64,000 nt of DNA from Lachnospiraceae bacterium. Lineage in GTDB: Bacteria; Bacillota; Clostridia; Lachnospirales; Lachnospiraceae. Under the pieces are notes generated by a model that had not been told where the DNA came from, did not search any database, and saw only the letters and a list, made by a program, of their open reading frames with translations. Each line of letters opens with the position of its first letter. Positions within the stretch are counted from its first letter, which is position 1. A program made the translations under genes and the position numbers. Location: positions 60,412 through 124,411 of the forward strand of contig JAGBOC010000011.1 in assembly GCA_017634065.1 (NCBI GenBank), in the 5' to 3' direction. Shown in pieces: positions 1-60,999 of this stretch.

Positions 1-2310
1 GCTCTTAAGATGCATGTACATCCTTCTATATCAACAGATGAAAATATAAAAAACTTTGAAAGACAGCTTAAGCAAATATCTGCAATTTATGATTGGGATA
101 TGGAACTAAAAACTACAGATCCAGATTATTATAGATGGACACAGTGGATATTTGTAAAACTTTTTGAAAAAGGTCTTGCATATGAAAAAGAGTTTCCAAT
201 AAATTGGTGTCCAAGTTGTAAGACAGGACTTTCAAATGAAGATGTCGTAGATGGGTGCTGTGAAAGATGTGGAACACCTGTTACTAAAAAGAACTTAAGA
301 CAGTGGATGCTTAAGATTACAGATTATGCAGAGAGATTATTAAATGATCTTGACAAACTTGATTGGCCAGAGAAAGTAAAAAAAATGCAGACGGAGTGGA
401 TTGGCAAATCATATGGCGCAGAAGTTGATTTTGAAATCGCAGATGAAGTTGCGAGTAAAACCGTAGGGGCGAGCAAAGCCGTAGGGGCGAGCAAAACCGT
501 AGGGGCGAGCACTGCGAGCCCTAACATCGTAGAGGCGAACAAAACTGTAGTAGCGAGTGAATCAGTAGGGGCGAGCACTGCGAGCCCTAGTAAAAATAAA
601 ATTACTGTCTACACCACTCGCCCTGACACTTTGTATGGTGCTACATTTATGGTACTTGCACCAGAACATGACCTTGCGATGAAACTTGCGACAGATGATA
701 AAAGAGCAGAAGTTGAAAATTATATAAAGACTGCATCGATGAAAACTAATGTAGACAGGATGCAAGTTTCAGATAAAGATAAAACTGGTGTATGGACTGG
801 AAGATATGCTATAAATCCATTAAATGGTAAAAAGATTCCTATATGGATTTCTGATTATGTATTAAATGATTATGGAACAGGTGCCATAATGTGTGTCCCA
901 GCTCACGACACAAGAGACTTTGCATTTGCAAAAAAGTTTAATCTTGATATTGTACCAGTTATCGCTCCAAAAGATGATATACATAAGTTTGATAATGGTA
1001 TGGATGAAGCATTTGTATCAACTGATGGTATAGTTATTAACTCAGGCGAATGGGATGGAAGAGTATCAAGTGAATTAAAGAAAAATGCGCCTGATGAATT
1101 AGAAAAGAAAGGCATAGGAAAGAAAACTGTAAATTATAAAATAAGAGATTGGGTTTTCTCAAGACAGAGATATTGGGGAGAGCCTATACCTATAGTTCAT
1201 TGCCCTAAATGTGGAAATGTCGCAGTGCCAGTAGAAGAACTTCCGCTAAAACTTCCAGATGTAAAATCTTATGAACCATCGGGAACAGGGGAGTCTCCAC
1301 TTGTAAATATCACTGATTGGGTAAATTGCAAATGTCCAAAGTGTGGTGGCGATGCAAAAAGAGAAACAAATACTATGCCACAGTGGGCAGGTTCATCTTG
1401 GTATTTCCTTCGGTATATAGATGTACATAATGATAAGGCTCTTGTCGACAAAGAAAAGGCTGACAAATATCTTCCAGTAGATATGTATATTGGTGGAGTT
1501 GAACATGCTGTTCTTCATCTTTTGTATTCAAGATTTTGGACAAAGTTTTTATATGATATAGGTGCTATAGGTTTTGATGAGCCATTTCATAAATTATTCA
1601 ATCAAGGAATGATACTTGGACCTAAAGGTGTCAAGATGAGTAAGTCGCTTGGCAATGTAGTTAATCCTGATGAGATGGTTGATAATTATGGATGTGATAC
1701 ACTTCGTATGTATGAACTCTTTATAGGACCTCCAGATATGGATGCAGCATGGGATGATAGAGGCATAGAAGGAGTATATAAATATCTTAATAGACTTTAC
1801 AATTTAGTTGAAAAAAATGTAAATGAAAATAGAGAAGCAACTAAAGAATGTCTATACATAAGACATAATCTTATAAAAGCTGTGACTGATAGGCTTGAGA
1901 AGTTTTCGCTTAATACAGTCATCTCTGGTTTTATGGAGTATACGAACTCACTTATAGAGCTTGATAGAAAAGAAGGCTATATTGACAAAGAGACATTAAA
2001 AACTATCGCTGTCTTATTATCGCCATTTGCACCACATGTAGCTGAAGAGTTTTATCATATGTTAGGTGGAAATGGCACTGTATTTGAAGCAGGTTGGCCA
2101 AAGTTTGATGAGAACCTCGCAAAAGCTGATACAGTGAAACTTCCTATACAGGTAAATGGCAAGACAAGAGGTTTCGTAGAAGTAGATGCAGGAGCTGATG
2201 AAAAAGAAGTTATTAATAAAGCAAAAGAAACCATAAAAGAAAAACTTACCGGTGACATAGTTAAAGAAATCTATGTAAAAGGAAAAATTATTAACTTTGT
2301 CGTGAAATAG
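1..2310 (+). CDS. leuS: Leucyl-tRNA synthetase, 5' end outside window; carries an in-frame repeat-derived insertion
   Basis: Frame 1 is open from base 1. Class I LeuRS blocks present: 'YYRWTQWIFVKLFEKGLAY', 'TTRPDTLYGATFMVLAPEH', 'VKMSKSLGN' (KMSKS). The usual N-terminal ~120 aa are missing. Confidence 0.96.
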   Translation, partial: ALKMHVHPSISTDENIKNFERQLKQISAIYDWDMELKTTDPDYYRWTQWIFVKLFEKGLAYEKEFPINWCPSCKTGLSNEDVVDGCCERCGTPVTKKNLRQWMLKITDYAERLLNDLDKLDWPEKVKKMQTEWIGKSYGAEVDFEIADEVASKTVGASKAVGASKTVGASTASPNIVEANKTVVASESVGASTASPSKNKITVYTTRPDTLYGATFMVLAPEHDLAMKLATDDKRAEVENYIKTASMKTNVDRMQVSDKDKTGVWTGRYAINPLNGKKIPIWISDYVLNDYGTGAIMCVPAHDTRDFAFAKKFNLDIVPVIAPKDDIHKFDNGMDEAFVSTDGIVINSGEWDGRVSSELKKNAPDELEKKGIGKKTVNYKIRDWVFSRQRYWGEPIPIVHCPKCGNVAVPVEELPLKLPDVKSYEPSGTGESPLVNITDWVNCKCPKCGGDAKRETNTMPQWAGSSWYFLRYIDVHNDKALVDKEKADKYLPVDMYIGGVEHAVLHLLYSRFWTKFLYDIGAIGFDEPFHKLFNQGMILGPKGVKMSKSLGNVVNPDEMVDNYGCDTLRMYELFIGPPDMDAAWDDRGIEGVYKYLNRLYNLVEKNVNENREATKECLYIRHNLIKAVTDRLEKFSLNTVISGFMEYTNSLIELDRKEGYIDKETLKTIAVLLSPFAPHVAEEFYHMLGGNGTVFEAGWPKFDENLAKADTVKLPIQVNGKTRGFVEVDAGADEKEVINKAKETIKEKLTGDIVKEIYVKGKIINFVVK
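451..589 (+). repeat. In-frame array of GTAG-type GC-rich repeat units inside leuS
   Basis: GTAG units start at 463, 481, 499, 529, 547 and 565 (spacings 18, 18, 30, 18, 18 nt, all multiples of 3). Full copies 'gtaggggcgagcactgcgagccc' at 499 and 565. Translated as 'VGASKAVGASKTVGASTASP...VGASTASP'. Confidence 0.9.
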
Positions 2311-2380
2311 TTTTGAGTAATAGGTTGTCTATCAATCTGCGCTGAAGATATAAATATGGGAGAAGTTTTAGAAATACATT

Positions 2381-4216
2381 ATGGAATATAGAAATAGTAC
2401 AAATGAATATGGCAGAGGGTTAAGCGCTTATGGGGAAAATAGAAACTTAAGTCGCTCGAAAGATGCTCTTAATCGTTATAGACTTAGCAGAAGAAAAAAA
2501 TCAAATAACATATTTAAGATAGTAGGGCTTTCTGTCAGTGTCATAGTAGTTTTAGTTCTTGCGATTTTTGGTGCTTATAAGTTTATACAGTATAGAAATG
2601 AAAAGAAAGAAGTTGAAGGATATTCAAATATCCAGATGAAGCAAGACATCTACCTTGATTTTTCTATCATTGGGATGAAAGAATATCTTCCGATAAAAGG
2701 GCTTACTAAACAAGAAGTTTATGATAAAGTTCTTGGCTCTTATGATTTTGATATAACTATATCAAATAGTAATCCAGAAATAGATTTATTTGAAATGCCA
2801 AAGTATGGAGCTAAAGCAGAAGAGGAAGATTATAGTAAATATTTCAATAAGAGCAGTGACAATCTCGGCACAGGTCAAGAAGTAGAAGTAAAAAATCCCC
2901 TTGCAGATATTACTATCACAGCTACAAAGAATACTTATAAGTTATCTGACTTTGTAGAAGGGCAACTTAAAAAGTTTATAGATGATATCTACGATAAATA
3001 TTTATATGTGACGTCAAATGATTTTAATAAGAAAGATGTAGATGTAAGTAATCCTAATTTCAAAGCAGATTTTATATTTAATGTAAAGACAAATGATGAA
3101 AATCTTGATAATTCACTTTCTCAACTTGCAAGACTTTGGAATACAAAACCAGTAAAGGGACAGATAGAAGGATTTGATAGCGAGAGAAATGAGTTTACCT
3201 TTGGCGATGATCATAAAGGATATGTAGTTGATGAAGATGCACTCAGGAAGAGAATTATAGAAGAAGTAAATGCAGGTCATCTTAAGACTGAAATATGGAC
3301 TGTATTAAATATGGTTGATGCAGAAGGACCATCAGTAAAATCAAGATATAAATATGTATCAATGTTTGAGACTTGGACTACTGATAATGAAAAGAGAAAT
3401 AAAAATATTAATCTTGCATGTACTGGACTAAATGGTTATATAGTAAAGCCTGGTCAAGAGTTTTCATTTAATCAAGTTTTAGGTGAGAGGACAGAGGAAA
3501 GAGGTTACGACTATGCTCCAGCATATCTTGAAGGGCAAGTTATAGAAGAACTTGGCGGAGGTATATGTCAGGTAAGTACGACTCTTTATAATGCTGTATT
3601 TGCAGCAGGACTTACAACTACTTATCGAAAGTCACATACTTATGTGCCAAGTTATATCACACCAGGCCTTGATGCCACAGTTTCATTTTATGGACCTGAT
3701 TATAGATTTATAAATAATAGTAATTATACAGTTGGTATAAAAGCTCAATATTCAAAACAAAAAGTAAAGATAGATATATTTGCAGTGCCTTTACTTAAAG
3801 AGGGCCAGACACAAAATCTTGTATCAACAAAGATTCAAGATATGGATATCCCTACTTTATCAATAATAAATGAAGGTAAGGCAAGTAGAGGTAGCCAAGG
3901 TTCTGAATGGCAGGTATTTAAGGTTGTGAAAGAGGGCGACAAAGAGATAGAAAGAGTATTTGATCATCAAACTATATATCAAGGTCATACTCCTACTGCA
4001 TTTGAAGAATATACATATGTAGATGATGATGGTGTACTTCAGACAAGCAAGTTTGTAGAGACAAGAGAATCAGAATCAACAACAAGAAGAAGTACAAGTA
4101 TAACGACGGCAAGAAGAAATACTACTATCCAGAGTATAGTGCCAACTGAAAGTGCCACAGGAGTAGTTATAGAGATGGCACCAGGTGGTGGTAGCAGAAC
4201 TGGCCAACCACAATAA
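2381..4216 (+). CDS. VanW-domain protein with N-terminal membrane anchor
   Basis: TM segment 'IVGLSVSVIVVLVLAIFGAY'. VanW-like core 'KPGQEFSFNQVLGERTEERGY..A....G......GGGICQVSTTLYNA'. Confidence 0.8.
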   Translation: MEYRNSTNEYGRGLSAYGENRNLSRSKDALNRYRLSRRKKSNNIFKIVGLSVSVIVVLVLAIFGAYKFIQYRNEKKEVEGYSNIQMKQDIYLDFSIIGMKEYLPIKGLTKQEVYDKVLGSYDFDITISNSNPEIDLFEMPKYGAKAEEEDYSKYFNKSSDNLGTGQEVEVKNPLADITITATKNTYKLSDFVEGQLKKFIDDIYDKYLYVTSNDFNKKDVDVSNPNFKADFIFNVKTNDENLDNSLSQLARLWNTKPVKGQIEGFDSERNEFTFGDDHKGYVVDEDALRKRIIEEVNAGHLKTEIWTVLNMVDAEGPSVKSRYKYVSMFETWTTDNEKRNKNINLACTGLNGYIVKPGQEFSFNQVLGERTEERGYDYAPAYLEGQVIEELGGGICQVSTTLYNAVFAAGLTTTYRKSHTYVPSYITPGLDATVSFYGPDYRFINNSNYTVGIKAQYSKQKVKIDIFAVPLLKEGQTQNLVSTKIQDMDIPTLSIINEGKASRGSQGSEWQVFKVVKEGDKEIERVFDHQTIYQGHTPTAFEEYTYVDDDGVLQTSKFVETRESESTTRRSTSITTARRNTTIQSIVPTESATGVVIEMAPGGGSRTGQPQ

Positions 4217-4220: not shown

Positions 4221-4250
4221 GTAGGGGTGAGCATTGCGAACCCGAAAGGA
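4221..4250 (+). repeat. Single GTAG-type element ending in CCCGAAAGGA just upstream of the tpiA start
   Basis: 'gtaggggtgagcattgcgaacccgaaagga' followed 6 nt later by ATG 4257. No other SD is visible. Confidence 0.85.
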
Positions 4251-5018: not shown

Positions 5019-6635
5019 GTGCCAAAGAAGAATAAAAATGAAATAGAAATATCAAATGCCATGGATGAAAATGTGTTAAATGATAACACTTCTATATTAG
5101 ATTTGGATAATGATGAAACTAGTGCTAGTGAAGAAAAAAGTGTAAAGAAAAATACAAGTAAGAGGGTTAGTCAAAAAAGTAATTCAGTTAAAAAAACTAA
5201 GCTTACGAAATCCAAGGCAGTAAAGGCTAAAAGTACTGCAAAGACAAAAAGTAAAGTTTCTAAAAATACTAAAAAGAATAGCAGTAAACAAATTCGCAAG
5301 AAGAATGATGATATTTCAACATATAGATCAAGTAGCAAGAAAATAGAAGATGAACTTCTTAAAGTTACAAATATTAAGTCAATTGAGCAGATAAAAAAGC
5401 CAAGAAGGATTGCTCTGATGATTGCTTTTTATGCTGTCGTAGTCATAGGTATTTTAACTTTCATTCTTATAAGATTTAGCAAACCTAAAAAAACTAATTT
5501 GCTTCTTGAAGAGTCAATAAATTATGAGTTTCTGACAGAAGATACTACAAGTAAGAGAATAGTAGAAGAAAGTTCATCTGATAAGATGGATGAAGAGATT
5601 TTAGAAACTATAGATTATAGAGAAAGTTCAAGTGAGATAGAGACAAAGGAAGCAACAGAGAAAACGACAGAAAAAGTGACACAAAAAGCAACGGAAAAAG
5701 TGACAGAGAAGGCAACAGAGAAAGTAACGGAGAAAAAGACAGAAAGAGCTACAGAGAAAAAGATAGAAAAAACAACAGAGCGTAAGACAGAAAGCACGAC
5801 AGAGTCAGCTGACATAAGTAAGAGACTTATGGAACTTACTACAAAGTCAGCAGACTCATATAAGTTAGAGACAGTTGAGAGAGAGACGGAACCAACTATG
5901 AGAGCCTGGCCAGAGAGAAGAACTATCGCAGAAATATTACCAAGATATAAAGATGTGTTATACTCATATCCAACATTTTATCAGATGTCTCTCTCTGAAA
6001 TAGGAGTTATAAATACTGCTCTTACTGAAAATTATGGCATTGCAAAAAATAAACTGTGGGGTGAAGAGATTTCATTTGCAAATAAAGGCTCAAATGGTCT
6101 CGTCTATTTAAACTATACTTATCTTCAGCAATATATTGAAAATTATACAAGTTCCGTAAGACAAGACTATGACAAGCTTAAATTGGCACCATATTATAAT
6201 TATATTATGAATGACAAGTTTCGCTATGACTATAAGACTTATACTACTAATCTTCAATTGAAACTTGACTTTAAGAATGCAAAAAATCAAGGAATGTATT
6301 ATGAGATACCAGCTATTATTTATGAACCGGCTGGAACAAATGTCTCATCAAATGGTATAAATAGGATAGATGTGAGAGTGCTAAAAAAGGCTAAAGTAGG
6401 CTATACCGAGAGTTTTTCACTCACATCACTTCTAGAAGTTCTTGATATAGAATGTCATACTAAACATAATCCATTTTTTGACATAGAGGATGTGATAGGT
6501 ATGAATCCTAAAGCAGTTTCGGACATGATAGGCAGTGGTTTTGATGTCAGATCCTTGATAGAAGATGAGATATTTAACTATGTCTTATTTGACAAAAAAG
6601 GTTATATAACAGCGCTTTATATGCTTAAATCTTAA
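5019..6635 (+). CDS. Hypothetical membrane protein with Lys/Ser-rich N-terminus and TEK-repeat region
   Basis: GTG start. Basic low-complexity N-terminus, one TM ('IALMIAFYAVVVIGILTFILI'), tandem 'ATEKVTEK' repeats (about 5640-5800). Confidence 0.6.
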   Translation: MPKKNKNEIEISNAMDENVLNDNTSILDLDNDETSASEEKSVKKNTSKRVSQKSNSVKKTKLTKSKAVKAKSTAKTKSKVSKNTKKNSSKQIRKKNDDISTYRSSSKKIEDELLKVTNIKSIEQIKKPRRIALMIAFYAVVVIGILTFILIRFSKPKKTNLLLEESINYEFLTEDTTSKRIVEESSSDKMDEEILETIDYRESSSEIETKEATEKTTEKVTQKATEKVTEKATEKVTEKKTERATEKKIEKTTERKTESTTESADISKRLMELTTKSADSYKLETVERETEPTMRAWPERRTIAEILPRYKDVLYSYPTFYQMSLSEIGVINTALTENYGIAKNKLWGEEISFANKGSNGLVYLNYTYLQQYIENYTSSVRQDYDKLKLAPYYNYIMNDKFRYDYKTYTTNLQLKLDFKNAKNQGMYYEIPAIIYEPAGTNVSSNGINRIDVRVLKKAKVGYTESFSLTSLLEVLDIECHTKHNPFFDIEDVIGMNPKAVSDMIGSGFDVRSLIEDEIFNYVLFDKKGYITALYMLKS

Positions 6636-6717
6636 TAGTTTTTTAATATTTTAGAGAGCCAATTTGTTGATTTTTTGTTAATATTATTCTATACTAATAG
6701 ATAGTAAGAGGTGTGAT

Positions 6718-8574
6718 ATGATTAGAAAAGTTTATAATTTTATTATTGCGACTTTAGTGGCTATCATGATGGTGAGCCAGGTAAGTTTTGTATTTGCTGC
6801 AAATGAAAGAGAACTTACTGATGATGAGAAGGCAGCATTCATAGTCCGCGATGAGTGGACTTCTTGGGTTCGTGATTTTACCGCATCTCTTTCTGAACTT
6901 GATAAAAATGCGACATCTAAAATCTATGACAACATGGATTTCTATGATATGCAGTATAGATTTACTGAAAAGTATAAAAAAGTTCCTGAGTATCTTGATG
7001 AGGATGGAAAGCCAACTCAAAAACTTAAGGATATGATAAAGACAAAGAGAAAGGAACTTGCAGGAGCAACTATAAGAGATTATTTGTGCTTCACTTCAAA
7101 TGCAGCAGGTTCTAAAATCTCGTATGCAAAAACTGGGTCAGTGACAACTGATGGTCTTGGTATCTCAACTGATGGAGTTTCATTTGTTGCTTGGGATGGC
7201 TCTGAAAAGACTATAGGTTCAGGTGAAACATTATACATTGTAAATAAAAGAAACTCATTAAGTACTGGTAGTGCTAATTTTCTACACTTTAATATCACTG
7301 GTAATGTATCAGTATCTGGTGACATATCTTCTCTTATAAACTTTAGTGATATATCATCTTTTTCATTTTTTAATTTATTTTCTGGATGCACAGGGCTTAC
7401 TAATGCTGAAGATTTAGTGTTGTCAAAGACAGCTGTTTCTTCGTACAATGGTATGTTTTATAACTGCACTAATTTGACTAGACCACCTGTGTTGTCAGCA
7501 ACTAGTCTATCAGCAAGTTGCTACGATAGTATGTTTGCTGGTTGTACAAATTTAACTTCTGCACCAAAACTTCCTGCAACGACACTTGCTAACGCTTGCT
7601 ATAGAAATATGTTTTCTGCTTGTTCAAGTTTGACAACTGCACCAGATTTACCAGCAACAACATTAGCAAATTCTTGTTATCAAGGGATGTTTAATGGTTG
7701 CTCATCACTTAATTCTATATCACTTGAATGGGAAGGAAACTTCTCTGGTACAGGAGTACCTACAGATGCATTTACAAATTGGGTAAATGGTGTAGCTAAT
7801 AGTGGAACATTCTATTATAGTGGTAGTGCTGATTCTACAGCAGATTCATCATATGGTGCGAGTGCTATGCCTAAAAATAGCACTAATAAATGGACTATAG
7901 GCAGAAATGATTACCTCAGATTCATATCAAGAAAAAATGGGTCACAGGTTGGATACTCATTGCATAACTTAACACGAAATAATATATACTATTCAAAAGA
8001 TAGAGTAACTTGGACACAATGGAATGGTAATTATGTAACTATCGACAATGGTGAAACATTGTATGTACATAATCGTGATAACCAGTTAGCGACAAGTACT
8101 ACTCAGTGTTTAATTTTTAATATGCCAAATTCAGGAGAAATAGAGGTTGCGGGAAATATTATGTCACTTGCCAATTTTAATACTACAGTACCATCAAGTT
8201 GTTTTTATGGAGTATTTGCTGGGGATTCTGGAATTGGAGATGGTTGTGATGCACTTGTAGATGCATCATCTTTAAAATTACCAAGTGCCATTGCTGCTGA
8301 ATGTTATCGAGAAATGTTTAATGGTTGCCGAAGATTGGTATATGGGCCAACATTACCAGCAACAACATTGGCATCAAATTGTTATATGCGCATGTTTCAG
8401 AACTGTACTTCGTTAATTAGTATTAAGCTTGGCTATACTGGATCTTTTGATAACGCATATTTTGCAGGATGGGTTAATAATATTAATACAGTCGGTACAT
8501 TATACTACAATGGCACAGGAACAGTGCGTGGTGGCAATGGTATCCCAACCAACTGGTCAGTAGTAACATACTAG
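6718..8574 (+). CDS. Secreted BspA-like leucine-rich-repeat surface protein, internally duplicated
   Basis: Signal peptide 'LVAIMMVSQVSFVFA'. Repeated 'F.GC..LT..P.LPATTLA..CY..MF..C.SL' units in two half-molecule copies. Confidence 0.7.
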   Translation: MIRKVYNFIIATLVAIMMVSQVSFVFAANERELTDDEKAAFIVRDEWTSWVRDFTASLSELDKNATSKIYDNMDFYDMQYRFTEKYKKVPEYLDEDGKPTQKLKDMIKTKRKELAGATIRDYLCFTSNAAGSKISYAKTGSVTTDGLGISTDGVSFVAWDGSEKTIGSGETLYIVNKRNSLSTGSANFLHFNITGNVSVSGDISSLINFSDISSFSFFNLFSGCTGLTNAEDLVLSKTAVSSYNGMFYNCTNLTRPPVLSATSLSASCYDSMFAGCTNLTSAPKLPATTLANACYRNMFSACSSLTTAPDLPATTLANSCYQGMFNGCSSLNSISLEWEGNFSGTGVPTDAFTNWVNGVANSGTFYYSGSADSTADSSYGASAMPKNSTNKWTIGRNDYLRFISRKNGSQVGYSLHNLTRNNIYYSKDRVTWTQWNGNYVTIDNGETLYVHNRDNQLATSTTQCLIFNMPNSGEIEVAGNIMSLANFNTTVPSSCFYGVFAGDSGIGDGCDALVDASSLKLPSAIAAECYREMFNGCRRLVYGPTLPATTLASNCYMRMFQNCTSLISIKLGYTGSFDNAYFAGWVNNINTVGTLYYNGTGTVRGGNGIPTNWSVVTY

Positions 8575-10204: not shown

Positions 10205-10813
10205 ATGATAAAAAATATAATATTTGATATGGGTAATGTGCTTATAGATTTTAATCCTATGCAGTATGTAGGTGAGCTTCATCTCGCGAATAAGGAAGAA
10301 GAAGAAAAAGTATTTAAGGCAGCCTATCTCAATTTTAAATCTATATATATGGATTACGGAAGAATTACTGAAGAAGAGTTTGTAAATCATGTAGTAGAAG
10401 GTATAGGGGAAGAATATCGAGATAAGATAAAAGAGTTGATAATCAACTGGCATAAGTACCTAACACCGATAAAAGGTATGGAGGAGATAGTTAAAGAACT
10501 TAAAGACAAAGGCTATAAGATATATCTTTTGTCAAATGCAGGATTTTCTCAACACGACTATTGGGATAGAATCCCAGCAAGTAAATATTTTGATGGAAAA
10601 GTAGTATCCTGCGATGTTGGCGAAGTTAAACCATTTAGAGAAATATATGAGGCACTTTATAAGAAGTTTAACATAAAGCCAGAAGAGAGTTTCTTCATCG
10701 ATGATTTAATTATCAATGTTTTTGGTGCAAATAGAACTGGCATGGAAGGCTATGTATTTACAGGAAGTGCCGAAGACTTGCGAAAAGAGTTAGTTAGAAG
10801 GGGAATATTATAA
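10205..10813 (+). CDS. HAD-superfamily hydrolase (subfamily IA-like)
   Basis: Motif I 'IIFDMGNVLIDF', motif II 'LLSNA', C-terminal 'FIDD'. Confidence 0.8.
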   Translation: MIKNIIFDMGNVLIDFNPMQYVGELHLANKEEEEKVFKAAYLNFKSIYMDYGRITEEEFVNHVVEGIGEEYRDKIKELIINWHKYLTPIKGMEEIVKELKDKGYKIYLLSNAGFSQHDYWDRIPASKYFDGKVVSCDVGEVKPFREIYEALYKKFNIKPEESFFIDDLIINVFGANRTGMEGYVFTGSAEDLRKELVRRGIL

Positions 10814-10879
10814 TAAGTTGTAAAGTTAAAACTTTGTAATTATTAAAAGCAAAAAATCATTCTATTTTGTATCATAATA

Positions 10880-11009
10880 AGTTGAAAAGTAGCCAGAATT
10901 TGTGCAAAAAATAGCAAAATATCATCCAGATTTATGTCAAAATTAGTTAAAACATCGTCCGAATTTGTGTCAAAATTAGTTGAAAAGTCGTCCGAATTTG
11001 TGTATAATC
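10880..11009 (+). repeat. Four tandem ~32-33-nt promoter-like direct repeats
   Basis: Units begin at 10880, 10913, 10945 and 10978. Consensus is about AGTTGAAAAGTCGTCCGAATTTGTGTCAAAATT. Confidence 0.85.
10980..11008 (+). promoter_or_regulatory. Consensus sigma-A-type promoter within the last repeat unit
   Basis: TTGAAA (10980-10985), 17-nt spacer, TATAAT (11003-11008), 8 nt before the ATPase ATG region. Confidence 0.6.
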
Positions 11010-11015
11010 AGGAGT

Positions 11016-12314
11016 ATGAAAAGAGAAATATTAGAAAAACTAGCTAATTGGAAGAATAGTAAAAATAGAAAGCCCTTGATTCTGAATGGTGCGAGGCAAG
11101 TTGGAAAGACCTATATACTTAAAGAGTTTGGGGCAAAATACTTTGATAATGTTTGCTATATAGACTTTAGTAGTAATGAGAGTTACAAAAATATTTTTGA
11201 AAAAGATTTTAATATTGAGCGAATAATTACTGAATTTAATGCAATTACTTCAACAAAAATAATGAGAGGCAAAACTCTTATTATTTTGGATGAAATACAA
11301 GAGGCTCCAAGAGCAATTACTTCGCTAAAATATTTTTGCGAAAATGAAAATGAATATGTAGTTGCATGTGCAGGTTCATTACTTGGAGTTGCAATACATA
11401 AAAATACATCATTTCCAGTTGGAAAAGTAAACTTAATGACAATGTTTCCTCTGACATTTATTGAGTTTTTAGAAGCAATGGGCAAAGAAGGATTAGCAAA
11501 ATTGCTTCAAGATGGCAATTACGAGAGTATAAATGATTTATCAGAAGATTATAATGCACTTCTAAAACAATATATAATAGTTGGAGGAATGCCAGAAGTT
11601 GTAAAGGAATTTGTAGAGAACAAAGATTTTACAGAAGTAAGAAATATACAAAAAGAAATTCTTAAAATGTATGATAATGATTTTAGTAAACACATAATTA
11701 ATCAAAATGAGTTATTAAAAACAAGGCAGGTGTTTACTACAATTCCAAGAGAATTAGCAAAAGAAAATAAAAAGTTTGTTTTGAGAGATATGGAGAAAGG
11801 TGCGAGACTCTCAAAATATGAAGTTGCTATTCAATGGCTTGTTGATGCTGGTGTGGTTTACAAAATACACAATGTTGATAAAATTGGAATACCACTATCT
11901 GCTTATAAAAAAATGGAAAACTTCAAAATCTATTTAGTCGATGTAGGATTATTAGGTGCAATGAGCAATCTTGATTATGCAGTGATTATTGAAGAAAATA
12001 GATTATTTGTTGAATTTAAAGGTGCACTAGCAGAACAATATATTTGTCAGGAATTAATGTATAGGTATCAAGATGAATTGTTTTTTTATTCAGATAGCAA
12101 ATCTGAAATGGAAGTAGATTTTATGATTCAGTCAAGAAATGAGCCTATCCCAATAGAAGTTAAATCAGGCAGTGTAGTTCAAGCAAAAAGTTTAAAACAA
12201 TATATAAAGAAGTATAAACCAAGTTATGCAGTTAGATTTAGTTTACTTAAGAACAAATATGATGAAACTATAAAAAATTATTCACTTTGGTCGGTGCCGA
12301 ATCAAATATTATAA
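11016..12314 (+). CDS. AAA+ ATPase with C-terminal DUF4143 / PD-(D/E)xK-like module
   Basis: Walker A 'GARQVGKTY', Walker B 'LIILDEIQ', C-terminal 'EVDFMI....PIPIEVKSG'. Start at ATG 11016 behind 'ggag'. Confidence 0.8.
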   Translation: MKREILEKLANWKNSKNRKPLILNGARQVGKTYILKEFGAKYFDNVCYIDFSSNESYKNIFEKDFNIERIITEFNAITSTKIMRGKTLIILDEIQEAPRAITSLKYFCENENEYVVACAGSLLGVAIHKNTSFPVGKVNLMTMFPLTFIEFLEAMGKEGLAKLLQDGNYESINDLSEDYNALLKQYIIVGGMPEVVKEFVENKDFTEVRNIQKEILKMYDNDFSKHIINQNELLKTRQVFTTIPRELAKENKKFVLRDMEKGARLSKYEVAIQWLVDAGVVYKIHNVDKIGIPLSAYKKMENFKIYLVDVGLLGAMSNLDYAVIIEENRLFVEFKGALAEQYICQELMYRYQDELFFYSDSKSEMEVDFMIQSRNEPIPIEVKSGSVVQAKSLKQYIKKYKPSYAVRFSLLKNKYDETIKNYSLWSVPNQIL

Positions 12315-12353
12315 ATATAAATTGTTAGATAAAACATTAAAGGGGAAATAATT

Positions 12354-13131
12354 ATGGATATGTTAGCAAAATATAAAGTAGTAGCAAAAAGATACGAGGA
12401 TATGCTTATGAATACTGAAGGCGCTTTAGGCGTAATGCACCTGGGGGGGGGTGGCAAGAGAACGCGCTGATGAACATTCTGACATTGACATTGCTGTATT
12501 TTCTTATGACAAACTTGATATTAAAGAAGGAGAGCAATTATCTGAAGAAGGATATGATGTTGAAATTTTTAATATTTGCATAAATAAAGGATTTGATGAC
12601 TGGGATCCTATCAAAAAAGAAGCATATGCTGAAGGAATTATTGCAAGAGATACAAATGGTATTGTTAAAGACTTTATGGATAAAGCTCTTTTTTATGACG
12701 AAGAGTTTAGATGTAGGTATTTAGCAAAAAATATATTTGATATTGCTTGGCACGGTTGGATTTATACACCATTTAGGAATCAAAATGTAAAAGGATATAA
12801 TTGGATTTTGCCAAATAACTTATGGCATCAAAGAGGAGAAATAAGTAATGATTACTATTTAACGAATTGGTGTATCAATAGTTTTATAGAATTGTTATTT
12901 GTAGTAAATAGAAAGTGGACTCCTGATTTTAAATGGAGATGGATTCGCTCTTGTCACTTAGAAAAATTACCAAGTAATTATAAAGAAAATATGAGTTATT
13001 TATTGTTTGAACCTTGGAATGAAGATACTTGGCTACAAAAGGGAAAGGTTTTCCAAAGGATGATTGATGAAGTAATACCGATGGTAATTGATGACATGCC
13101 TGAAGACTGGTATAACTTATTGGAGCACTAA
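12354..13131 (+). pseudogene. Pol-beta-type nucleotidyltransferase-domain gene interrupted by a +1 frameshift at a G9 tract (or phase-OFF state)
   Basis: ATG 12354 with RBS 'aagggg'. The frame stops at TGA 12468. The downstream frame (ORF 12451..13131) reads 'ARERADEHSDIDIAVF'. Removing one G from G9 (12443-12451) fuses them to '...GALGVMHLGGVARERADEHSDIDIAVF'. Confidence 0.75.
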
Positions 13132-13149
13132 TAGTTGAATGGAGTTTAT

Positions 13150-16100
13150 ATGGAAACAAATAAAGTATTCATTTCTCATCAACATAATAATGATGATATA
13201 GCAAATAAAGTTTTGTCAGCATTAGAGAATAGTGGTTTAGAGTGTTTTGTTGATCATATGCATATTCCTGACGGTAAGAATTGGAGTGACAGAATTGAAA
13301 AGGAATTAACCGAATGCAAATATTTTATTTTGATAAACTCTGAATATACTGTAGGGTCAAATGGTTGTTATGTTGAATTAGATAGAGCAAAACAAGCAAA
13401 AAAACAAATTATTATATTAAAACTTGGCGACTTCAAGGAAGATTATAAGTGGGACGTTTTGCTTACTGCAGTTCAGGTGACACAAATTACAGAAGATAGA
13501 GTATATGATATTGTCAAGAATAAAGTTGTACCTAGTTTCATAGGGTCACAGCAAAAAAATGAAGTAAATAAAATGACCATAGATGAGTTTAACAATGTAG
13601 AGATTGATAAACTGAAAAACGATTCTTCTGAAACATATTTGAGAACATCTTTTAATGATTTTGTTGATTTAGCAATTAAGGGAAATGAGAGATTATCAAT
13701 TATTAAATATAAACAAAATTGTGAGTATGAAGATAATCTATACACAAAATTAATAAATATAAAGAATGATGAAGTAAAATTCATCTATTGCAACTCAATA
13801 GCATCTGTTGATTTATCAATTAATTTGATTGCTGAACAAAAACAGGAAGAGGTTTATTATTTATTTATAAAGAGCATTAATGAAATTGATGGACTAAATA
13901 AGATACATAGCTTAATTCAGAATCATAAAAATATAAACTTTATAATTGGAATTAATTTAGAATCATGGATAGATTTTAATAACGAATTTAATGATGCCAG
14001 GTGTCTTGTTTTTGATAAAATGTCTAATAAAGAAACGATAGAATATTTAAAACAGTTAGAAAAGGAAGAAGGGCTAAATATAGGTGGCAATTTACAAACA
14101 ATATTTTTGTTACCAGCGCTTCATGATTTTAGGACTCCAAAGTTACTAAAGATTATTATTAATTACATAAAGAAAAATTATTCGTCTTACAATGATTCGG
14201 ATTTTAATTTGACAGATATTTTTGATTTTTATGATAAATATTTAGAAACCAATGTTAAAGCAAATGAAGCATTTGAAGAATTGATTAGTATTGCTATAAA
14301 AAAGAAATTCAATGTTTTTACTCTTACAGAATTTGCAGATAATAAAAATGTATTATTCGAGAATGAATTAGTGACAAAAAAGGGGATTAATTATAAAATA
14401 GGAAATGAAGAGTATTTTCTACATAGAGTTGCTATGCATATTTTTACAACATATGGTTCTAATTACGAGGAATCATCAGTATTAGCAATAAAGGATTCTA
14501 TTCCTTATTATATATATTTATATTATAGCGAAACTCATGAATTAATACTCGACAAATTTAAATTGGATGAGCAAAATATTAGTAAACTATTACAATTATT
14601 CATTAGTGAGGAAGAAGCATTTACTAGTATAGTTTTATCAAGAAAATATGACACAGAAATTGTAAAACTGCTAAATGAAATTAATGAAAAAGGATTGTAT
14701 AATATTTCTGAAAGAATAATTAGTATTTTTGAAAAAGAAGGTATAGACCCAAGTGAAGAACTTGATTATTTATCTGCTAAAATTGAGATGCATTATAATA
14801 TGACAGATGAATTACTTGAAACTGATGCTGAATTTGGTAATGTATTGGCTGAAAAGGCGTATATTTGTTATCAAACAGATAATTTTACTAAAGCAGGTGA
14901 ATTATTTGATAAAGCAATTGACAAAATGCTTGATGCAAATCAAACTAATTATAAACTTATATTTAATTATATAGAGTATCTATTTGATTTTGGTGACTAT
15001 AACAAAATTGAAGAATTACTTAATTATGTAGATAATGAAGACATTAAGTCAAGTGATGACTTGCTAATTAAGTATTATTATAGTCAGGCTGAATTAGATG
15101 GATATCGTTTGGAGATAGATTCATGCCTTTATAATTTAGAGAAATGCATATCTTTGTGCGAAAAGAATGTCAATATTGGTAAAATGCAGATTTATTATGG
15201 TGAAAAAGGATATTACTTAATGCTTAAAGGTAAATATGACGAATCTAAAAGATATAGTAGAATTAATTTGGAAATAGCAAAATCTTTAGGTAATTTTAAT
15301 GGAATGGTGGTGGCATCTATTAATCTTGCAATGTGCGAGTTAGCTTTACAAAACTTTGAACAAATGTATAAGTTAGTTTCATATGCCTTAGTATATGCAA
15401 AAAATGTTAGAAATTACTGGAGATATAGCGAGAGTTTTATGTATCTGTTACTATTGATAAAGGACAAGGATAAATTAGAAAACATTGATGAAATAATACC
15501 AAATGTAGATTCTGATATATTTAGAACATATATATATTTGTTATATTCATATTATTACTATATAAAAAAAGATATAGCACTTGCTAAAGAAAAAATTAAT
15601 ATTGCTATAAATTATTCAAATCAGATTGAAAATGTACAATTAAAAGAGATGGTAAAGGCATGGTCTAATTACATAAGCACTGAAAAAGTTGGAAATATTG
15701 ACAATGAGTTAAGACAATATATGAATGATGTGATTGAATCATTAAATGCTTTAAGAATTGAAGAAAAAACATTTACTTTGCCACTAGAGTTTTATTTGTA
15801 TAAAGAACTAAATAGTGAACGACTAAAATATAGAATTATGAAAATTTCTGATATACCAGATATATTTGAATATTCTAGTAATAGTGAATGTACTAAATAT
15901 GTATTATTTGATAAGCACAAATCTTTTAATGATACTGCAAAGTTTGTTGCAAATGTATATGATGAAAATAATACTGGAACATATATGTGTTGGGCAGTAG
16001 AGCATAGAGAAGACAAGAAAGTTATTGGCACAATTGATTTGATATTAAGTGAAAGATATAATGAAATAGAAATAGGATATATATTTAATAAGAATTATTG

Positions 16101-16320
16101 GAGAAAAGGTTACGGAAGAGAGTCAGTAAAGACAATCGTTGACTATTGTAAAAATTGTTTGGGGCTCAAAAGTTTATTAGGTGTTGCTTTTGAAGTAAAT
16201 GAAGGATCAAGAAAATTGTTAGAATCTACAGGTTTTGTTGAATTTGAAAAAATAGAAAATTATCATAATAAAATATTACTTAAATCAAAAAATGGTGTAG
16301 CATACAGGCTTTTATTATAA
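13150..16320 (+). CDS. TIR-domain - helical/TPR scaffold - GNAT acetyltransferase fusion protein (1,056 aa)
   Basis: N-terminus 'KVFISHQH...GLECFVDHMHIPDGKNWSDRIEKEL.ECKYFILINS......GCYVELDRA' (TIR_2-like). C-terminus 'IGYIFNKNYWRKGYGRESVKTIVDYC...EVNEGSRKLLESTGF' (RimJ/RimL-type GNAT). No Walker A seen. Start at ATG 13150 after 'ggag'. Confidence 0.75.
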   Translation: METNKVFISHQHNNDDIANKVLSALENSGLECFVDHMHIPDGKNWSDRIEKELTECKYFILINSEYTVGSNGCYVELDRAKQAKKQIIILKLGDFKEDYKWDVLLTAVQVTQITEDRVYDIVKNKVVPSFIGSQQKNEVNKMTIDEFNNVEIDKLKNDSSETYLRTSFNDFVDLAIKGNERLSIIKYKQNCEYEDNLYTKLINIKNDEVKFIYCNSIASVDLSINLIAEQKQEEVYYLFIKSINEIDGLNKIHSLIQNHKNINFIIGINLESWIDFNNEFNDARCLVFDKMSNKETIEYLKQLEKEEGLNIGGNLQTIFLLPALHDFRTPKLLKIIINYIKKNYSSYNDSDFNLTDIFDFYDKYLETNVKANEAFEELISIAIKKKFNVFTLTEFADNKNVLFENELVTKKGINYKIGNEEYFLHRVAMHIFTTYGSNYEESSVLAIKDSIPYYIYLYYSETHELILDKFKLDEQNISKLLQLFISEEEAFTSIVLSRKYDTEIVKLLNEINEKGLYNISERIISIFEKEGIDPSEELDYLSAKIEMHYNMTDELLETDAEFGNVLAEKAYICYQTDNFTKAGELFDKAIDKMLDANQTNYKLIFNYIEYLFDFGDYNKIEELLNYVDNEDIKSSDDLLIKYYYSQAELDGYRLEIDSCLYNLEKCISLCEKNVNIGKMQIYYGEKGYYLMLKGKYDESKRYSRINLEIAKSLGNFNGMVVASINLAMCELALQNFEQMYKLVSYALVYAKNVRNYWRYSESFMYLLLLIKDKDKLENIDEIIPNVDSDIFRTYIYLLYSYYYYIKKDIALAKEKINIAINYSNQIENVQLKEMVKAWSNYISTEKVGNIDNELRQYMNDVIESLNALRIEEKTFTLPLEFYLYKELNSERLKYRIMKISDIPDIFEYSSNSECTKYVLFDKHKSFNDTAKFVANVYDENNTGTYMCWAVEHREDKKVIGTIDLILSERYNEIEIGYIFNKNYWRKGYGRESVKTIVDYCKNCLGLKSLLGVAFEVNEGSRKLLESTGFVEFEKIENYHNKILLKSKNGVAYRLLL

Positions 16321-16338
16321 TTAAGTTGTATGGTAAAG

Positions 16339-16464
16339 GTTAGAACAACCATTGTAGGGTCGAAGATTAGAACAACCATTGTAAGTGTGAAAATTAGAGC
16401 AACCATTGTAAGTGCGAAAATTAGAGAACCATTGTAGGGGCGAAGGTTTCCGAGCCCGAAAGGA
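16339..16464 (+). repeat. Tandem 27-nt repeat array ending in a GTAG-type element and CCCGAAAGGA
   Basis: Exact 27-nt periods at 16339, 16366 and 16393. Fourth unit (16420-) ends 'gtaggggcgaaggtttccgagcccgaaagga', 4 nt before the xpt ATG. Confidence 0.9.
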
Positions 16465-18531: not shown

Positions 18532-18621
18532 GGAGATAGGAGGGTAGCTGGTGCGCCCCGCGGTCTTCAACACCGTTGTGAAAGTTAAACTTTCGGCTAG
18601 GTTCGATTCCTAGCGTCTCCG
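18532..18621 (+). tRNA. selC: tRNA-Sec (anticodon UCA)
   Basis: Anticodon stem-loop 'gcggt-CTTCAAC-accgt' with TCA at 18667-offset-free position 18567-18569. Long variable arm 'gaaagt-taa-actttc'. T-arm 'ctagg-ttcgatt-cctag'. Sits directly upstream of selA. No encoded CCA. Acceptor pairing is imperfect, so the ends are +/- 2 nt. Confidence 0.85.
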
Positions 18622-18666
18622 TTTATTAATTAGTTGAGACCAAAGAAAATTAGTAATCTATTTTAG

Positions 18667-18694
18667 AGTTCTTTGGTTTCAAAGAACTTTTTTA
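18667..18694 (+). terminator. Rho-independent terminator after selC
   Basis: 'agttctttg-gttt-caaagaact' followed by T6. Confidence 0.75.
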
Positions 18695-18742
18695 TTTATA
18701 AGAGTTATAAAAAGAGGTCAAAGTATCATTTAGTTTTAAATT

Positions 18743-20134: not shown

Positions 20135-20151
20135 ATAACTTCAACTCAACC

Positions 20152-20256: not shown

Positions 20257-20264
20257 AAATATAT

Positions 20265-37900: not shown

Positions 37901-37918
37901 AATAATAAGAGGTTGTGC

Positions 37919-38695: not shown

Positions 38696-38698
38696 ACT

Positions 38699-38784: not shown

Positions 38785-38790
38785 ATAAAT

Positions 38791-54441: not shown

Positions 54442-54506
54442 AAAAACACCTCAAAAAACGAATTATAACATAACATTTAATTATATATTATAGATGAATA
54501 TTTAGC

Positions 54507-54638
54507 AACCCCCTATGCCAACCCCCTAACTTTCATAACTTGTAGGTGGTTGGTACTGGGGAGGTGAGCATTGCGAACCCGAGTTGTAGGGAAGGAACTT
54601 TACTAGCACGTAAAAAATAGGTCGTTAGATATGGATAT
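54507..54638 (+). repeat. Conserved 5' cassette (copy A): C-rich/G-rich long hairpin plus partial GTAG-type element upstream of a secreted-paralogue gene
   Basis: 'aaccccctatgccaaccccctaac...cttgtaggtggttggtactggggaggtgagcattgcgaaccc...aaataggtcgt'. Re-occurs at 60733-60999. Confidence 0.8.
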
Positions 54639-56093
54639 ATGAGAAAGAGCACAAAAATGGTGAAAAAGCTACTGGCTTTATTTTTAGTTGTGCTCATAAG
54701 TATAGAGAGTTTTGGGGCGGTGGTTTCTGACAATGATGGGTCAGCCTTCATAACAAAGGCAGAGTTTGATAGTTTGAAAAATGAGTTTCAGAGTCAACTT
54801 GATAATTATAATACAACAATAGATGCTAAATTAGATGAGGCGATATCATCATACCTAGCAGGTATCAAAGTGAAAAACTCTCTGGAATTAGAAAGTATTA
54901 TTAATAAAATCAATGGGAGTACTAAATACGATAAAGGCTGGTTCCCTATGTGCAAAACATTTAGTCCCATTACAACAAAAAAGCCCGTTAATGGACAACT
55001 TGCTTTAAATGTAGTGGGTAATGGCGGTGGTGGAGGGGCAGCGAACAATGGGTGGAGAAGTAGTTTTAGTTTTAGTTTGAATTTAAATCATAGTAATGCA
55101 CTTGTTCGTGATACATTATATTACATTGACATTCCATCAACAAAAACTGATGGTGTTTATTATGTATATAAAAAGAATAGGAATGGTAATTTTAAAATGT
55201 ATGATGGTAAATATGTAACCATGAGTTATAAAGAATTGTTTACAGGTGTGCAATTTGGATATGGTAAAATTTGGAATTTCACTGGTTCAGTAATCCCTAC
55301 TTGGACAGTTGGCGTGATGGCGAATTCAAGTTCAATATGGACACCAATGTCAACAACAGTGAATTATACAATAATGAACTGGAATGACGCTGGGACTGAA
55401 ATAGCAACACCATATGATAGAGCTGTCACTTGTCTGTGGGTGCCATCATTTGATGCAACTGATGTAAGTCAAGTTTGGCCAGTTATGGGTTCTTGCGATA
55501 GCTCTGCTAATCTTATAGCTTTAGATACTGAAAACTACACTACCATGACATTGAGCAATACTAAATCAACATTTAAAAGCGGTTTTAAAGGTCTTGCTTT
55601 TACACATTTAAATGGTGCAGATAAAACTAACACAACGAACAATGGAGCACTTGGTAGTGATTTCGAATTTTATTATAATTATCATCCATATGAAGAAATT
55701 GCAATGTCAGATTTAGCTATTACGGAAATAGCAGATGTATTAGATAATAAAAAGTTTCCATTTTATAGTGGACTACCAATTTGCAAAATTGCAGATGATG
55801 GAATTGTTACAATTGAATTAGAGTTTCATAGTGAAAGTGGTAATGACATAAAATATGCAATACGAGCTGATGCATTTCAAAATGATGCAAGTTATGTTAG
55901 TGATACAGCATTAAACATTAGAAAAATGGATGAAACTCCAATTACAAGTTATGAGATAAGTAATAATTCAACTTTAAAACTCAAATTAAATGTAAAAAAA
56001 GGGACAGTGCTGTGGATTAAAACGTGCGATGCAAATAGTGACACTGGATATACAGGAGTTAAAACAATTTCAATAAGTGAAGAGTTTACATAA
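54639..56093 (+). CDS. Secreted paralogue family protein, type A, copy 1
   Basis: Signal peptide then conserved mature N-terminus 'VVSDNDGSAFITKAEFDSLKNEFQSQLDNYN..ID.K.D.AISSYLAGIKV'. Alternative start at ATG 54657. Confidence 0.75.
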   Translation: MRKSTKMVKKLLALFLVVLISIESFGAVVSDNDGSAFITKAEFDSLKNEFQSQLDNYNTTIDAKLDEAISSYLAGIKVKNSLELESIINKINGSTKYDKGWFPMCKTFSPITTKKPVNGQLALNVVGNGGGGGAANNGWRSSFSFSLNLNHSNALVRDTLYYIDIPSTKTDGVYYVYKKNRNGNFKMYDGKYVTMSYKELFTGVQFGYGKIWNFTGSVIPTWTVGVMANSSSIWTPMSTTVNYTIMNWNDAGTEIATPYDRAVTCLWVPSFDATDVSQVWPVMGSCDSSANLIALDTENYTTMTLSNTKSTFKSGFKGLAFTHLNGADKTNTTNNGALGSDFEFYYNYHPYEEIAMSDLAITEIADVLDNKKFPFYSGLPICKIADDGIVTIELEFHSESGNDIKYAIRADAFQNDASYVSDTALNIRKMDETPITSYEISNNSTLKLKLNVKKGTVLWIKTCDANSDTGYTGVKTISISEEFT

Positions 56094-58919: not shown

Positions 58920-58932
58920 TGTGGAGAACATT

Positions 58933-60536: not shown

Positions 60537-60732
60537 CTAATTCTGTTTTAAATTTATTATTATATGTTTTAAAAATTTCATTTTGCGACAGTGGGTTCAT
60601 GTGAATTATAGCTACTCGACCTGCAAGAGTATTCTTTTGCCAAGTTTAATATGCTATTTTCTATTTGTCTTTTGATATACATAAAAGCCCCTTTTTTTCA
60701 TGATGAAAATACGATTACATCTTATTTTAATA

Positions 60733-60999
60733 CAACCCCCTATGTCAACCCCCAATCTTTTGCAACTTGTAGGTGGTTGGTACTGGGGAGGTGCGTTCGC
60801 CGTAGGGGCGAGCACCGCGAGCCCGAACGTAGGTAGATGTTGTACTTGCGAACGTATTTTGTGAGCTTAGTACAACACTATGCCAGATTTCCGTGAAGAT
60901 GCGAAGCATCTGAACGCTTTTCGGAAATCGGCTGGTGAGCACGCGCCGTAGGGGTGAGCATTGCGAACCCTAACTAAATAGGTCGTAAAATACATATTT
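60733..60999 (+). repeat. Conserved 5' cassette (copy B), expanded by extra GTAG-type units and a ~110-nt nested-hairpin insert
   Basis: Same flanks as 54507-54638. GTAG units at 60802, 60829 and 60948. Hairpins at 60839-60876 and 60886-60929 (inner 60897-60911). Confidence 0.8.

Follow-up and report, generated by a model that had tools for sequence, protein, structure and literature searches.

The stretch of DNA examined here, a window of 64,000 nucleotides (64 kb) on contig JAGBOC010000011.1 of a Lachnospiraceae bacterium, contains, among others, leuS, tpiA, selA, selB and genes of the proline and glycine reductase type. Between and within these genes lie copies of a short GC-rich repeat that opens with the tetranucleotide GTAG and continues as an imperfect hairpin. 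These repeats are very probably GTAG-type repetitive extragenic palindromes (REPs), i.e. non-autonomous DNA elements tied to a REP-associated tyrosine transposase (RAYT). This identification is supported because the identical 23-mer flanks RAYT-like genes, in the layout termed REPtron, in related genomes. The repeat is thus a known kind of element, in a clostridial group where it was undescribed before.

The dispersed repeat family in the window is real. A pattern scan found exact matches to GTAGGGGYGAGCAYTGCGARCCC at 499, 565, 4221, 20231 and 60948, and copies with one mismatch at 20152 (ending in CCA), 27877 (loop AAT) and 60802 (loop ACC); these eight positions had been listed as intact copies in an earlier reading of the window made without database searches (hereafter the sequence-only reading). 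Besides these eight copies with at most one mismatch there are about 12 degenerate or half copies. A headless copy at 54558, with three mismatches, brings the matches at up to three mismatches to nine, a looser scan recovered degenerate copies at 20179, 20205 and 16434, and half or partial copies at 463, 481, 529, 547, 38699 and 60829 were read directly in the sequence. The partial and degenerate copies listed earlier are therefore present, the one given at 54561 being the headless copy. The window total amounts to nine sites and about 20 units per 64 kb, whereas 100 dinucleotide shuffles of the window contained no match to GTAGGGGYGAGCAYTGCGARCCC. The contrast in GC content that had been noted (about 70% against about 30%) was measured as 74% for the element and about 33% for the window. 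Three GTAGGGG heptamers, at 34233, 39779 and 43330, were rejected as chance matches and are no copies of the element. The copies, all of which lie on the + strand, are arranged as follows.

445-587, + strand: head-to-tail array of seven units inside the leuS coding sequence, in frame, with a degenerate first unit (445-462), 18-nt half units at 463, 481, 529 and 547, and full copies at 499-521 and 565-587; the encoded peptide reads ...VGASKAVGASKTVGASTASPNIVEANKTVVASESVGASTASPS
4221-4243, + strand: single full copy of the T..A type, beginning 4 nt past the stop codon of a VanW-like open reading frame (ORF), ending 13 nt ahead of the tpiA ATG and abutting the Shine-Dalgarno site (CCC directly followed by GAAAGGAaagaatATG)
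16354-16457, + strand: array of three half units of 26-27 nt (heads at 16354, 16381 and 16408), then a variant full copy, 16434-16457, GTAGGGGCGAAGGTTTCCGAGCCC, whose end lies 11 nt upstream of the ATG that opens a phosphoribosyltransferase gene
20152-20253, + strand: array of four units of 26-27 nt between selA and selB, at 20152 (one mismatch), 20179 and 20205 (both degenerate) and 20231 (exact); the last unit stops 11 nt short of the selB ATG, and selB has no evident Shine-Dalgarno site
27877-27899, + strand: single copy of the C..G type with loop AAT, 8 nt past the stop codon of a PrdA/Gly_reductase-like ORF
38699-38778, + strand: composite or split copy between prdD-like and prdE-like ORFs, with a 5' half GTAGGGGCGAGCAC (38699-38712) and a 3' half TGCGAGCCC (38770-38778) about 57 nt apart; the 3' end (38778) abuts a Shine-Dalgarno site (CCC directly followed by GAAAGGAtaaatATG)
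54558-54596, + strand: headless copy GGGGAGGTGAGCATTGCGAACCC, then a partial head GTAGGGAAGG, in the 5' leader of the gene at 54639
60802-60970, + strand: two full copies, 60802-60824 (C..G, loop ACC) and 60948-60970 (T..A), in the 5' leader of the gene at 61000, a paralogue of the gene at 54639; between them lie a degenerate unit (60829-60853) and some 95 nt of further sequence rich in hairpins

The idea that the copy at 38699-38778 splits one gene in two was considered and rejected; of its flanking ORFs, one matches the Gly_reductase profile in its N-terminal part and the other in its C-terminal part, just as the separate PrdD-like and PrdE-like genes of proline reductase clusters do, and upstream of them there is a gene for a proline racemase.

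The minimum-energy structure of the element is the fold that the sequence-only reading had predicted, i.e. four base pairs, a tandem G.A/A.G, two further base pairs and a triloop, with positions 5-12 pairing with positions 16-23. The preceding GTAG varies little or not at all across 206 copies. As RNA, the sense hairpin folds with -10.3 kcal/mol and the complementary strand with -7.7 kcal/mol; the sense form is the steadier one because the tandem G.A turns into a tandem C.U on the other strand. The corresponding DNA fold energies are -4.2 for the element strand and -3.4 for its complement. The inner pairs are GC/GC in 210 copies and GT/AC in 16. Position -1 is a pyrimidine in 196 of the 206 copies, and C at +1, able to pair with the final G of GTAG, is found in just three of them. 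GTAG therefore stays unpaired, and the scarcity of C at +1 fits a requirement for a single-stranded GTAG.

Positions 8 and 20, which face each other in the stem, had been claimed to co-vary and never to be mixed in intact copies. Within the window this holds: C..G is found at 499, 565, 27877 and 60802, T..A at 4221, 20152, 20231 and 60948 and also in the headless copy at 54558, and only one copy, the degenerate one at 20179, is mixed (T..G). Across the family the co-variation stands (CG 177, TG 30, TA 21, CA 9; Fisher p 8e-10), and the orthologous tpiA site carries T..A in the window and C..G in RUG816, a related genome, but the absence of mixed copies does not, the mixed copies being mostly the wobble intermediate (30 T..G against 9 C..A). 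Compensatory variation extends to the whole stem: among 81 distinct 23-mers, 83.6% of the cells at the eight stem positions are paired, compared with 71.7% in shuffles, a figure inflated by the preselection of these 23-mers for at least 6/8 pairs. The compensatory pattern itself is free of this effect, with 79 cells altered on both sides against 26.8 expected, and slid pairing registers are only 31-48% paired. Sister families have G-C or A-T pairs where the main family has its tandem G.A. These pairing data are silent on whether the hairpin acts as DNA or RNA, because both would form on the same strand.

The element is not confined to the window. An exact-pattern scan of species-representative genomes returned at least 105 stretches, from about a dozen assemblies among the matches listed. 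The hosts among these matches are low-GC rumen and gut Clostridia, mostly metagenome-assembled genomes (MAGs) of Lachnospiraceae: RGIG6119, RGIG3219, RGIG9190, UBA3866, UBA3633 and SRR12081300_bin.40 from the rumen of sheep, goat or deer, to which are added RUG816 and UBA1728 (both 'Clostridiales'), one 'Clostridia' MAG, the termite-gut Bacillota MAG Lab288P1bin55 and two 'Acidaminococcales' MAGs (Negativicutes). The window itself belongs to none of these assemblies; RUG816 is its closest relative among the matches listed, with 73-77% nucleotide identity over syntenic genes. The loci fetched from these genomes (numbered L003 and so on) contain 292 copies with up to four mismatches, and sister hairpins occur behind the same GTAGGGG head, e.g. 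GGGCGGATATCATCCGCCC, GGGCGGCATTCTGCCGCCC, GGGCGAGTTTTACGAGCCC and GGGCGAACGCTTGCGGAGCCC.

The same 23-mer is also found in much GC-richer, phylogenetically distant genomes, namely at L008 (UBA1728, 59.6% GC) and at L012 and L023 (the Acidaminococcales MAGs). This suggests horizontal spread, a strong constraint on the hairpin or mis-binning of MAGs.

A Y1/HUH protein of 142-172 amino acids is encoded beside the repeats in eight related loci (seven distinct). A motif scan for MPNH(L/I)H in six-frame ORFs of the fetched loci, to which tblastn added a fifth locus, identified the first five: L029 (UBA3866), L075 (bin.40), L062 (RUG816), L039 (RGIG6119) and L012 (Acidaminococcales). Direct copies lie upstream of the gene in seven loci, and inverted copies within 400 nt downstream in five. 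In L075 the window's own element is present as direct full and half copies upstream and as seven inverted copies downstream, while L062 has one upstream copy and two inverted copies downstream. L029, and L106 with the same gene and flanks, have one upstream copy and none within 400 nt downstream; L012 carries a RAYT that is truncated at its N-terminus and has a near-copy at the 5' end; and L039, L109 and L110 show the same REPtron layout with sister hairpin variants of their own. The inverted flanks typical of a REPtron are thus present in L075, L062, L039, L109 and L110, and partly so in L029 and L012.

Two details of these loci may be added. In L109 the RAYT gene (3001-3435) and its flanking REP arrays reside between leuC and leuD of the leucine biosynthesis operon. 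The RAYT of L012 is just 37-40% identical to those of Lachnospiraceae, yet adjoins the same 23-mer.

The proteins themselves point to the RAYT branch of the Y1 enzymes. They score 27 bits with Pfam Y1_Tnp (cut-off 23), while their best NCBIfam match is REP_Tyr_transpos, 'REP-associated tyrosine transposase' (E 1e-16 to 5e-22), and the IS200 model gives 18-21 bits only. The best match in the PDB is 4ER8, the TnpA-REP of Escherichia coli, with HxH, WQ..F.E..IR and Y...N aligned. In this alignment the HUH motif, the catalytic tyrosine with an asparagine at +4 and the residues for GTAG contact are present; W94, Q95, E100, R104 and N119 have been described as the residues for GTAG contact and activity (Quentin et al., PMC6006769). 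About 1,800 public homologues exist, some of which were named 'REP element-mobilizing transposase RayT' by JGI. Motifs and flanking repeats together bear out the proposal of the sequence-only reading that the family is REP-like and of the RAYT kind.

Orthologous sites were compared between genomes, as had been proposed, and differences were found. A copy lies ahead of the orthologue of ORF 10205 in RUG816 and none in the window; conversely, the array at 16354-16457 is absent at the orthologous site of RUG816. At the tpiA site both genomes have a copy, and RUG816 has extra copies there. Genomes at 80-92% identity show differences of 24-60 nt that consist of whole units, and in some cases one hairpin type is swapped for another at the same spot, e.g. 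upstream of dnaK, where three species have three variants. Altogether, 16 of 38 comparable sites (about 40%) are occupied in both species.

These observations would be accounted for by the following mechanism. The unit is a single-stranded GTAG tetranucleotide followed by an imperfect hairpin of eight positions. A RAYT (TnpA-REP, Y1/HUH), present as a single copy, would recognise it in one of the two DNA strands when that strand is single-stranded. This enzyme is thought to cleave and rejoin DNA, and by doing so may spread the copies and keep them uniform within a lineage; the RAYT would be the mover of the copies. Since only the GTAG strand would be a substrate, it would enter whichever strand is exposed as single-stranded DNA (ssDNA). 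This would be the lagging-strand template, which for most genes here is the sense strand, or perhaps the non-template strand while a gene is being transcribed, and a sense bias would result. Selection would then keep only tolerated insertions: those in the gap from a stop codon to the Shine-Dalgarno site that follows, and those within protein loops that are read in frame 0 or 1. Once transcribed, a sense copy is predicted to form a stable RNA hairpin, which may secondarily affect the mRNA.

The orientation of the copies relative to genes bears on the choice of strand. The sequence-only reading described them as strictly co-oriented with genes, and in the window they are. As evidence this is weak, because 41 of the 48 long ORFs are themselves on the + strand, which has a positive GC skew throughout. 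Family-wide, strict co-orientation gives way to a preference of roughly 3:1: when every hairpin type lying no more than 200 nt from a long ORF is included, 163 copies are sense and 49 are antisense. Many of the antisense copies are inverted flanks of RAYT genes or members of a few arrays, and in the WRAY genome both orientations are interleaved.

The co-orientation could be a mere by-product of replication, with the GTAG strand put into the lagging-strand template as in IS608 and ISDra2 and with no link to transcription or RNA. We regard this as possible, though rather less than probable. The lagging-strand template is the sense strand of more than 85% of the genes, which are co-directional with replication in these genomes, and a preference of Y1 transposases for that template could therefore explain the bias. 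Such insertion is documented for IS200/IS605 and discussed for TnpA-REP (PMC6006769), the window agrees with it in skew, gene strand and copy strand, and an antisense array between leading-strand genes (L063) also speaks for it. The majority gene strand per 8-kb locus left too few discordant loci to part replication-linked from transcription-linked orientation. However, L043 and L051 contain genes with a coding-strand skew near 0, the value expected on the lagging strand, and the copies that these genes carry are in sense orientation; the low-skew genes outside the WRAY genome have 17 sense copies and 2 antisense ones, in a classification by coding-strand GC skew that is crude and covers few cases. 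Purely replication-coupled insertion is disfavoured because these low-skew genes still carry mostly sense copies, which favours a link to the gene itself. A rather speculative extension is that the orientation of clostridial REPs is tied to transcription, either via RAYT action on the exposed non-template strand or via a co-opted sense RNA hairpin. In the latter version the tandem G.A hairpin, placed 1-4 nt upstream of the Shine-Dalgarno site, could serve as an mRNA-protecting or translation-modulating module.

The copies are placed non-randomly with respect to start codons. Twenty-four of 237 copies end 10-14 nt before the start codon of a long ORF, a peak that departs from a flat distribution of distances with p about 7e-16. 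Within 20 nt of such a start end 29 copies, in which the Shine-Dalgarno sequence begins 1-4 nt after CCC, position +1 is always G, the consensus is CCC followed by GAA(A/G)GG and the upstream distances range from 1 to 178 nt. In the window, the copies at 4221 and 38770 abut Shine-Dalgarno sites in this way. About 12% of all copies end 1-4 nt before a Shine-Dalgarno site, and about 86% are not beside a ribosome-binding site.

The Shine-Dalgarno-like GAAAGGAG was considered as a part of the element and rejected; non-adjacent copies do not have it. A Shine-Dalgarno-like motif occurs within 12 nt of 41 copies, of which 29 precede a called gene and several others visibly do. The Shine-Dalgarno site is a feature of the gene and no part of the element.

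This placement raises a further alternative, namely that the repeat is a domesticated cis-acting RNA element, a sense hairpin retained mainly for an effect on mRNA, of which RAYT was only the historical source. A role at the RNA level had been hinted at by the sequence-only reading, and the orientation could also stem from a strand-specific insertion of ssDNA. The hairpin could block 5'-to-3' decay by RNase J just upstream of the ribosome-binding site or, like REPs in E. coli, protect the preceding cistron at its 3' end. The sharp spacing to start codons and Shine-Dalgarno sites combined with broad upstream distances speaks for such a role, and so do the sense bias, which persists in putative lagging-strand genes, the greater stability of the sense RNA hairpin, the three hairpin variants that hold the position before the dnaK ribosome-binding site in three species, the tpiA site that is occupied in both the window and RUG816 despite coding identity of about 75%, and the excess of T.G over C.A intermediates. 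Nevertheless, copies that abut a Shine-Dalgarno site are kept across species no more clearly than others (5/9 vs 11/29), turnover at orthologous sites is high, the large majority of copies lie away from ribosome-binding sites, many of them in coding sequence, and G.T is tolerated in same-strand ssDNA hairpins too. At the gathering threshold, Rfam 15 gave nothing that overlaps the window copies; at E up to 5 there were two chance-level overlaps only (snoZ157, minus strand, 569-623, E 1.8; tmRNA, 20256-20333, E 3.7), and a search of six related loci found no family for the element. We regard this mainly RNA-based explanation as unlikely.

Most copies are intergenic, and dozens lie inside long ORFs, on the sense strand and in frame. 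They are read as VGASTASP (frame 0) or RGEHCEP (frame 1), while frame 2 is closed by TAG. The leuS array of the window adds about 51 residues: residues 145-195 of the ORF have no counterpart in the leucyl-tRNA synthetase (LeuRS) of Thermus thermophilus, and the insertion sits between the catalytic core and the editing domain. All 15 of 15 LeuRS homologues at 68-82% identity lack about 48 amino acids of the inserted segment. Half units, each GTAGGGGCGAGCA plus a spacer of 5-14 nt, stand in tandem ahead of a full copy in the window (445-587, 16354-16457 and 20152-20253) and in L075 and L110. The array periods are 18 or 30 nt in leuS and 26-27 nt in the two intergenic arrays, which is the pattern that frame preservation would demand. 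Cleavage and rejoining by RAYT, or slippage, are candidates for the origin of the half units.

The 120 LeuRS homologues listed for a 200-residue query (P0121-P0240) are all fragments of up to 349 amino acids, even on contigs of hundreds of kb, and several of the alignments end in frameshift-like tails. The fragments may reflect broken gene calls or the way in which the search collects candidates.

Short GC-rich hairpins that are sometimes arrayed and often intergenic might also represent a non-mobile repeat, such as (i) a CRISPR-like array, (ii) integron attC sites, (iii) intrinsic terminators, or (iv) operator sites of a regulator. The array periods are 18-30 nt without unique spacers, and positions +1 to +6 are rich in G and A, so that the T-run of an intrinsic terminator is absent past the hairpin. 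The CRISPR, attC and terminator readings were ruled out by array period, flanks and context. Copies inside genes and in frame, the occurrence of the same sequence in inverted orientation around Y1 transposase genes and the polymorphism of sites between species argue against a non-mobile repeat of any kind, which we consider extremely improbable.

Several points weigh against the interpretation of the repeats as RAYT-linked REPs. The scores of the proteins with REP_Tyr_transpos (61-78 bits) are under the curated NCBIfam cut-off of 80, and the RAYT gene of RUG816 (L062, about 6352-6785) looks frameshifted, with two reading frames meeting near 6546; it is either a frameshifted pseudogene or affected by an assembly error. 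The search for a RAYT/TnpA-Y1 gene that the sequence-only reading had proposed was successful beside the repeats in related genomes, but tblastn and the motif scan detected none within the 64-kb window, and the partner enzyme is therefore seen in relatives and not for the window's own genome. We infer that this genome encodes such a RAYT outside the 64 kb. Many copies lie within genes, and the copies are single or form head-to-tail arrays with half units instead of the inverted doublets known as REPINs (REP doublets forming hairpins) or BIMEs (bacterial interspersed mosaic elements), which have been proposed as the unit that moves in Proteobacteria. The sense copies on the near-zero-skew genes of L043 and L051, and the 17:2 ratio on low-skew genes, also fit less well. 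Finally, mobilisation itself is something we infer from presence or absence at orthologous sites.

The family can be compared with several known systems. GTAG-type REPs are characterised by a conserved GTAG (or GTGG) at the 5' side, 0-2 nt ahead of an imperfect, GC-rich palindrome some 20-40 nt long. With the GTAG-tagged REPs of E. coli (REP/BIME), Pseudomonas and Stenotrophomonas it shares the 5' GTAG followed by a GC-rich imperfect hairpin, the tens to hundreds of dispersed copies, the several hairpin subfamilies per genome and the single-copy Y1/HUH gene with inverted repeat flanks and conserved GTAG-contact residues. Di Nocera et al. (2013; PMC3733652) described 24 GTAG families, noting singletons, dimers and G-T pairing, and found that REPs mostly adjoin the 3' end of the ORF upstream and that some lie inside genes, including tRNA synthetase genes. 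Occasional in-frame copies in genes, tRNA synthetases included, are thus another common feature, whereas the present copies are often 5'-proximal to the next gene, mostly single or head-to-tail with half units, and sense-biased. Their hosts also differ, being low-GC Clostridia (Lachnospiraceae-like MAGs) and Negativicutes. Firmicutes or Clostridia are not mentioned in PMC3733652 or in PMC2817692 (Nunvar et al. 2010), and Bertels et al. (2017; PMC5581495) state only that Group 1 RAYTs also occur in Clostridia. A full-text literature search for the sequence of the element returned nothing relevant.

REPINs (Bertels and Rainey, PMC3116915) resemble the present family in the enzyme family of the presumed replicator, in long persistence and in orthologous retention across species. 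The inverted doublet that characterises REPINs and BIMEs is, in contrast, absent in the window and rare in relatives, where it occurs mainly around RAYT genes and in the WRAY genome, the only one to combine both orientations in a single intergenic region. Like IS200/IS605 elements (IS608, ISDra2), the system combines a Y1 HUH transposase, imperfect hairpins (sub-terminal in those elements) on one ssDNA strand and a strand-specific orientation bias. Unlike them, the repeats carry no gene, the associated protein fits REP_Tyr_transpos far better than the IS200 model, and the RAYT is present once per locus, in housekeeping contexts such as the leuC-leuD junction.

Rickettsia palindromic elements (RPEs) are likewise palindromic repeats that are found in frame in essential protein genes and add peptide segments, whereas in the present family an intragenic location applies to some copies only. 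At 23 nt the present element is also far shorter than the classic RPE-1 elements. The intragenic RPE-4 and RPE-6 of R. conorii were classified by Di Nocera et al. (PMC3733652) as CGTC-type REPs.

REP/RAYT systems have been worked out almost wholly in Proteobacteria, and the family described here extends them to low-GC Firmicutes, specifically uncultured rumen and gut Clostridia. Its pattern helps annotators of these MAGs to make sense of many unusual GC-rich islands, disrupted gene calls and inserted peptides. Because the copies are single, strongly polar and not paired, they offer a natural test of replication versus transcription in the strand choice of Y1 enzymes, and the sharp placement upstream of ribosome-binding sites is a testable lead for an effect at the mRNA level. 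If the orientation is indeed tied to transcription, by either of the two routes named above, an originally selfish ssDNA element would have turned into a cis-acting RNA module of wide occurrence, and one that also supplies essential proteins with in-frame peptide insertions.

Beyond the repeats, the window contains a selenocysteine toolkit (tRNA-Sec, selA and selB), genes of the proline/glycine-reductase type and a proline racemase gene, a combination that points to an amino-acid-fermenting, Clostridium-like organism. REP copies occupy several cistron junctions within these segments (18532-22220, 26024-28638 and 36586-39264).

The paralogous ORFs at 54639-56093 and 61000-62580 have no Pfam match and start with MRKSTK.. 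and MKKSTK.., respectively, followed by a hydrophobic, signal-like N-terminus. Both are preceded by a conserved leader (54501-54557 and 60741-60800) of the form CAACCCCCTATGYCAACCCCC...GTAGGTGGTTGGTACTGGGGAGGTG, with complementary C-rich and G-rich segments, after which come a REP copy and AAATAGGTCGTAA. The same gene plus leader was found by BLAST in L054, L057, L069, L064, L003, L047 and L072, and the leader is a candidate cis-regulatory RNA for a gene family present in multiple copies.

A segment at about 10800-16400 (ORFs 10980-12314, 12451-13131 and 13135-16320) has no counterpart in RUG816 locus L077, which is syntenic in other respects. Among its products is a 1061-residue protein that starts with a TIR domain and ends with a GNAT acetyltransferase domain; the segment may represent a defence or accessory island whose right edge is at the REP array 16354-16457.

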